Source: a virus (taxonomy: Duplodnaviria > Heunggongvirae > Uroviricota > Caudoviricetes). Taken from it: DNA of 19,804 nucleotides. The notes under the pieces are model-generated. The model saw only the letters and a list, made by a program, of their open reading frames with translations. It did not search any database and was not told where the DNA came from. Where the stretch lies: IMG/VR virus record IMGVR_UViG_2648501400_000003; one strand, written 5' to 3'. The translations under genes were made by a program, and so were the position numbers. Positions 19,601-19,804 of this stretch are shown here, piece by piece (position 1 is the stretch's first letter; every line of letters begins with the position of its first letter).

Positions 19601-19710
19601 ATATCAGTGGCAGTGTGAATGCGAACGCCGGGACGCTCAACAACGTCACGGTAAATGAAAACTGTACGATTAAGGGCATGCTGGAGGCGACTCAGGTCAG
19701 AGGTGACTAG
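16636..19710 (+). CDS. J: Tail tip/host specificity protein J, 3'-truncated by IS2 insertion (1024 of about 1132 codons; C-terminal receptor-binding region lost)
   Basis: Starts [20 protein letters not shown]... as in lambda J, with GAGAGGA SD. Spacing from I matches lambda. The ORF ends at a TAG (19708-19710) that is the first three bases of the IS2 end. By collinearity with lambda the native stop would be about 324 nt further on. Confidence 0.9.
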
Positions 19711-19804
19711 ACTGGCCCCCTGAATCTCCAGACAACCAATATCACTTAAATAAGTGATAGTCTTAATACTAGTTTTTAGACTAGTCATTGGAGAGCAGAT
19801 GATT
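19708..19804 (+). mobile_element. IS2 left end, partial (IRL plus leader and the orfA start codon ATG at 19799-19801); body of the element lies outside the window to the right
   Basis: TAGACTGGCCCCCTGAATCTCCAGACAACCAATATCACTTAAATAAGTGATAGTCTTAATACTAGTTTTTAGACTAGTCATTGGAGAGCAGATGATT matches the IS2 terminus and leader as I remember it (orfA/InsC begins MID...). Perfect inverted copy of 1-93. Confidence 0.7.

Follow-up and report, generated by a model that had tools for sequence, protein, structure and literature searches.

IS2 interrupts the tail-tip gene J of a lambdoid Escherichia coli prophage at the fibre/receptor-binding-domain boundary

Introduction

The tail-tip protein J of phage lambda (1132 aa; PDB 8IYK, 8XCJ and 8XCK) has been resolved by cryo-EM into hub domains, two FNIII domains, a helical shaft, a beta-sheet prism and an Ig-like receptor-binding domain; loops of this last domain insert into LamB, and the resulting opening is relayed up the prism and opens the tube (PMC11101478). 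Evolution experiments have mapped the specificity region of lambda J to residues 960-1132, with critical residues at 1012 and 1107 (PMC6646904). The tip of phage T5 is made up of a hub (pb3), a central fibre (pb4) and a receptor-binding protein (pb5), encoded by separate genes that evolved to assemble together (PMC10721106).

Here we describe a J gene that is cut by the insertion sequence IS2 after codon 1024. Its product is 97% identical, over all 1024 residues and with no gaps, to residues 1-1024 of the J protein of phage phi458 (OP434518, 1165 aa) and 96.2% identical (tblastn) to J of phage cdtI (AB285204 / NC_009514), but it is without the last 141 codons of phi458 J (FVKAVSK...GISIR), which encode the Ig_GpJ_C domain. 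With lambda J it shares 87% identity, the same N-terminus and the same domain order, and it differs in carrying 28 more residues in the helical-shaft region and in leaving 136 lambda residues without a counterpart. Set beside the T5 tip, the truncated J has equivalents of the hub and the fibre but none of the receptor-binding module, and the separate pb3, pb4 and pb5 would be its nearest functional analogy; in T5, however, the modules are separate genes shaped to work together, whereas here the separation came about by a transposition accident, and nothing suggests that the two halves of J cooperate.

A full IS2, a member of the IS3 family, is 1331 bp long, ends in a right inverted repeat and carries orfA and orfB, which are joined by a programmed frameshift.

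Results

The window analysed here (the whole stretch of 19,804 bp) is the complete contig JHSW01000062.1 of a short-read draft assembly, GCA_001266175.1. It is colinear with phages cdtI, phi458, Tritos and mEp460 and with many E. coli prophages, at 95-98% DNA identity (over the whole window, 96-97% with cdtI and phi458), and judged by its sequence it is the late-gene region (lysis end, head and tail) of a cdtI/phi458/mEp460-like lambdoid E. coli prophage. The tail module is of the lambda type and the head module carries a ClpP-protease/capsid fusion. The latter, at 5764-7983, joins a ClpP-like prohead protease to the major capsid protein, as in cdtI and mEp460, and the likeness of this prophage to lambda is limited to the tail module. 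Downstream of the tape measure gene, the called genes and their Pfam families follow the order M-L-K-I-J. An earlier reading made from the sequence alone (hereafter the sequence-only reading) had taken gene lengths and spacing from M to J to match lambda exactly; this is so for M, L, I and the start of J, but not for J itself, which carries an insertion of 28 residues.

Each end of the window is an IS2 left end; the two are inverted relative to each other and face inward, with unique DNA between them. What ends the sequence at 19804 is a break of the draft assembly at the repeated IS2, not a biological cause at that point; since the window is a whole contig bounded by IS2 ends, the missing 3' end of J is invisible within it.

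In the ORF list, the J frame occupies 16591..19710 on the plus strand, with its ATG at 16636 and its stop codon, TAG, at 19708-19710. The truncated J itself (tip attachment / central tail fibre) is read at 16636..19707 on the same strand, from the ORF list, the sequence and the alignment to lambda and phi458 J; the sequence and the ORF list agree with the earlier statement that it runs uninterrupted from 16636 for 1024 codons. The N-terminus at ATG 16636 is identical to the lambda J start. Within the last 115 bases of the window the junction reads ...ACT CAG GTC AGA GGT GAC ^ TAG ACT GGC CCC CTG AAT CTC CAG ACA ACC..., the caret marking the end of J, and the IS2 left inverted repeat supplies the stop codon (19708..19710, plus strand) with its first three bases. 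The gene caller of a public collection calls exactly the same 1024-aa product on JHSW01000062.1, and a look-up of the exact product finds it encoded on this one public contig only. We also considered whether J of this lineage might naturally end at codon 1024, and rejected the idea: among relatives in the same 90% cluster, those without a partial flag are mostly 1159-1165 aa long, and the 1024-aa form is unique to JHSW01000062.1.

An antisense ORF of 333 codons (18787-19788, minus strand) begins within the IS2 end and extends back across J. Pfam gives no match for it, and it is very likely spurious because long antisense ORFs occur elsewhere in J too (17116-18681).

Alignment to lambda J confirms the truncation and places it at lambda residue 996: the window J is 87% identical to lambda J residues 1-996 (BLASTP), with codon 1024 opposite residue 996. 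The offset comes from about 28 extra residues at roughly codons 836-866 (19141..19233, plus strand), visible as two gaps in the lambda sequence, of 21 and 7 residues; they leave no gap against phi458 J and sit where lambda J has its alpha-helical shaft (PMC11101478). Twenty-eight residues are four heptads, so that a coiled-coil register would be preserved. Because of this insertion, lambda residue numbers are not directly transferable beyond residue 835, and codon 1024 is equivalent to lambda 996 rather than lambda 1024; a direct transfer of lambda coordinates to this J lineage is thus to be corrected for the 28 additional residues that it has ahead of the receptor-binding domain. The number of missing codons, previously put at about 108, has to be revised accordingly to 136 by lambda numbering or 141 by phi458 J, the closest relative. 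The higher figure holds if the lost part was of the phi458 type, which is what the sequence just ahead of the break indicates: the last 14 residues of J before it are identical to phi458 J.

The domains that remain are readily recognized. FNIII-A_GpJ (E = 5e-41) and Phage-tail_3 (E = 1e-42) are found at nearly full length in the truncated product, so that the N-terminal hub region is present, and Ig_J (E = 1e-41), Ig_J_second (E = 6e-40) and Phage_Tail_Tip (E = 8e-31) each match over nearly the full Pfam profile. The last of these, the central straight fibre domain, is whole (residues 872-1000; 19249..19635, plus strand; profile positions 1-138 of 139). The one J domain lost, with all other five kept, is PF12421 (Ig_GpJ_C), the "C-terminal receptor binding domain" of Pfam: it spans residues 1001-1132 of lambda J and 1029-1164 of phi458 J, it is absent from the 1024-aa product, and the break falls four to five residues upstream of its start. 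The product belongs, as a truncated protein, to the lambda J (TipJ) family and not to a different one; it lacks the Ig_GpJ_C of that family because the IS2 cut removed it.

Residues 1-835 of the window J align to solved lambda J chains, and the alignment to solved chains stops at lambda residue 996. PDB entry 8jvm (three chains, one of them 8jvm_F) covers approximately residues 830-995 of lambda J and ends about one residue before the equivalent of the break, which suggests that the beta-prism can exist without the receptor-binding domain; a literature search found no paper mentioning this entry.

The sequence-only reading had also proposed that receptor recognition is what the break removes. 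Pfam and published work on lambda J agree with this (PMC11101478, PMC6646904): the absent Ig_GpJ_C domain is at lambda residues 1001-1132, the solved chains likewise put the receptor-binding domain downstream and not upstream of the break, and by analogy with lambda nearly all of receptor recognition is to be placed there. The lost domain, to judge by the flanking J residues, was probably of the phi458 type and not of the LamB-binding lambda type, and our search for a receptor of the phi458-type domain returned none. DNA encoding a phi458-type receptor-binding domain is present in 2,112 of 5,426 complete E. coli genomes; the best 60 matches to this domain in complete genomes all (60/60) lie inside annotated J genes.

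To locate the start of the inserted element, we compared three independent insertions (AW1.7, RL465 and the window), which are unrelated before, and identical exactly from, TAGACTGG on; this places the first base of IS2 at 19708 and makes the stop codon part of IS2, in agreement with the earlier claim that the IS2 terminus supplies the stop and adds no extension of its own. The window ends inside this IS2 left end, of which 97 nt are present (19708..19804, plus strand), comprising the left inverted repeat (IRL), the leader and the orfA ATG at 19799-19801; it is transcribed in the same direction as J. These bases match the 1331-bp IS2 copies in AW1.7 and RL465 at 96 of 97 positions, the single difference being G for A at 19795, and in annotated copies the transposase CDS begins 92 nt into IS2. 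By the terminal sequence of these left 97 nt, the element is IS2 (IS3 family).

The bases directly ahead of it, GTGAC (19703..19707), are presumably the 5-bp target site: in four complete IS2-in-J insertions (see below) the five bases that adjoin the left inverted repeat are the ones duplicated, and by analogy with these a second GTGAC is expected at the right end of IS2 (terminal sequence ...GGGGCAAATCCA), followed by TTCGTTAAAGC (J codon 1025 onward). The J-IS2 junction was found in none of 5,426 complete E. coli genomes with a 120-nt junction probe, and an exact-pattern scan found it in no species-representative genome.

IS2 has entered J more than once. Among complete genomes, RL465, AW1.7, MS 196-1 and E17 each carry a 1331-bp IS2 in J that is flanked by an exact 5-bp duplication and followed at once by the rest of J: after the residues ASINI (approximately codon 779) in RL465, at codon 839 in AW1.7, at about codon 889 in MS 196-1 (M15 and one more are apparently the same, from hit geometry) and at codon 1073 in E17. 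The element and its orientation relative to J are the same in RL465, AW1.7, MS 196-1/M15, E17 and the window; outside the window, the annotation of these loci gives a J pseudogene divided by a transposase of the IS3 family. RL465, AW1.7, MS 196-1 and E17 show both ends of IS2 together with the rest of J, whereas the window shows one IS2 end of its J insertion. The window insertion alone stands at the boundary between the fibre and the receptor-binding domain, the other four alleles being at different codons. Thus IS2 in J is a recurrent event, and the site after codon 1024 is private to the window.

In three of the four complete-genome alleles J ends on the IS2 TAG, as it does in the window. 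IS2 begins with TAG, so one third of the insertions in this orientation should stop the host frame at once; the immediate stop is seen in 4/5 J alleles (L001, L002, L011, L012 and the window), for a binomial probability of about 0.045, a figure to be read with n = 5 and with a detection of IS2-in-J that is biased toward one IS2 orientation. The excess is probably due to chance.

The other end of the window repeats the pattern in the lysis region. A second IS2 left end, inverted, occupies 1..93 on the minus strand; its reverse complement is identical to 19708-19800, the G variant at IS2 position 88 included. This IS2 end interrupts the spanin gene Rz, of which a 3' fragment remains at 94..383 (plus strand; Pfam Phage_lysis, E = 4e-34, from profile position 27 onward), and the matches of relatives to the window begin at base 94. 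The Rz-IS2 junction has no contiguous match in complete E. coli genomes. The flanks that adjoin IS2 in the window are TTGAC on the Rz side and GTGAC on the J side; no IS2 target consensus emerged across six insertion sites, and the TGAC common to both window sites is probably a coincidence. Four complete E. coli genomes (H110-H113) have IS2-end and Rz-flank matches on the same strand, approximately 200-650 bp apart, with lysozyme RrrD and a lysis protein as the features under the match; these may be IS2 insertions at other sites of the lysis cassette.

Discussion

We consider it about 85% probable that two inverted copies of IS2 have inserted into this prophage, one into Rz and one into J, and that J is now a pseudogene, a product of prophage decay, without its receptor-binding domain. 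IS2 would have transposed into J after codon 1024, four to five residues ahead of the receptor-binding domain, where its in-frame TAG would end translation at once; the predicted product would keep everything from the hub domains through both FNIII/Ig domains and the helical shaft to the end of the beta-prism fibre, and would have no receptor-binding domain. A simple insertion is inferred because the four complete IS2-in-J alleles are simple insertions, and by the same analogy the 3' remainder of J would most likely lie directly behind the IS2 copy, after the second GTGAC. A tail with such a J would presumably be unable either to recognise its receptor or to trigger DNA ejection; by analogy with the solved lambda structures, it is plausible that the tip could assemble and yet be receptor-blind. 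Pseudogenisation of a prophage gene by an IS is an ordinary and well-known kind of event, and the allele is a new one.

The flanking IS2 copies are inverted repeats, so the 19.6-kb segment between them may have flipped, and a flip would place the 5' end of Rz behind the J-side IS2 and the 3' end of J behind the other. Such an IS2-mediated rearrangement, whether an IS2 x IS2 inversion of the 19.6-kb segment or a deletion of the J 3' end, lom and the side fibre genes, would in either form mean that the J 3' end is not behind the right-hand IS2. It agrees with the finding that both ends of the window are inverted IS2 left ends with the same rare G variant, a symmetry of the assembly graph that fits either arrangement, and heavily rearranged IS2-in-J prophages do exist (RL465, for example, has a fusion between fragments of a holin and of J). 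The four complete IS2-in-J alleles are nevertheless all simple, with matching 5-bp duplications, and the contig itself bears no sign of a rearrangement, which leaves this explanation unlikely, if well worth keeping in mind. A far smaller probability attaches to an assembly artefact, that is, a chimeric contig end or a minority variant, with J intact in the genome. The window is a short-read draft contig that ends inside a repeat, and its J junction is private (0/5,426 complete E. coli genomes and no species-representative genome), as an artefact would be; but the junction is clean at the exact first base of the IRL, as real transposition gives, an equally clean second IS2 junction stands at the other end of the window, and the contig continues for 97 nt inside IS2 with no branch back into J (a point that we infer from assembler behaviour).

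The break lies within five residues of a domain boundary, and one might ask whether J has been split into two functional parts: the truncated body and either a separately translated receptor-binding domain or a receptor-binding protein supplied in trans. T5 has equivalent modules as separate proteins (PMC10721106), and our model of the right junction extends the open J frame by 14 codons upstream into IS2, to a starting GTG, giving a 155-aa ORF composed of MITDVWKYRGKSSD plus the receptor-binding domain. The nine right-junction products predicted in this way (MITDVWKYRGKSSD plus variants of the receptor-binding domain) are, however, absent from the protein collection, a result to be set against the simple insertion as well, and an IS2-derived N-terminus appears in none of the 60 short proteins that a homology search matched to the phi458 receptor-binding domain. 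Further, the other IS2-in-J sites are not at domain boundaries, so that the position in the window is best explained by chance; Rz is disrupted as well; and the receptor-binding domain of lambda is covalently continuous with the prism, the signal passing through that connection (PMC11101478). A functional split is the explanation to which we give the least credence of all.

Read as a decaying J interrupted by IS2, the locus is of some practical interest: as a natural deletion of the receptor-binding domain the cut is nearly perfect and, if the strain is available, could show whether a lambda-type tail tip assembles without that domain. It also carries a lesson for draft assemblies, where a gene that ends at an IS on the edge of a contig is a broken gene with its other half on another contig.

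A recurrent breakpoint lies close to the insertion. Among the proteins matched by the phi458 receptor-binding domain, several join unrelated phage N-termini to this domain; they stem from five independent prophage deletions that all have the same end-point to the nucleotide, C^AGAGG, which in the window falls between 19698 and 19699, 9 nt upstream of IS2 and just before J codon R1022; the fusions are joined just before RGD, which FVKAV follows. Their junction DNA reads ...C^AGAGG(T/A/G)GA(C/T)TTCGTT, in three sequence variants of the receptor-binding domain, and the partners are the protease gene C (L006:6129, L007), the terminase gene A (L008:6204, L009), J codon 597 (L010:302), the tail terminator gene U (L014:353) and Rz (L015:321). 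The four partners with readable native sequence all continue C^AT..., which gives them two bases (CA) of microhomology to the J site. In E. albertii, a 453-bp contig (L013:4) begins four bases before the C^AGAGG point.

In the excision of IS3-family elements promoted by IEE, a fixed end is reportedly joined to variable partners through microhomology (PMC9943667), and by analogy a fixed DNA end left by IS excision would explain the C^AGAGG end-point. No IS was found at this breakpoint, either in three species-representative loci, where J is intact, or in the best 60 complete-genome matches of the receptor-binding domain, which all fall within annotated J. That the fibre/receptor-binding-domain boundary of J is a specific, recurrent site of breakage or transposition, and not a random target, seems to us improbable. 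If it were true and had a specific mechanism (such as a strong IS3-family target with later excision of the IEE type, or a site-specific activity that has gone unrecognised), the module of receptor-binding domain, lom and side fibre would be routinely detached and re-attached there, and the recurrent deletion end-point beside the insertion site may merit a study of its own.

Other fusion end-points cluster at J residues of approximately 1047-1052 and 1110-1113 (P0020-P0027, P0048, P0049, P0052), and there are internal J deletions too, for example from 610 to 912 and from 105 to 1127. Deletion derivatives that retain the J 3' end are common among the returned fragments, and lom is directly downstream where the DNA was read (L006-L010, L014, L015).
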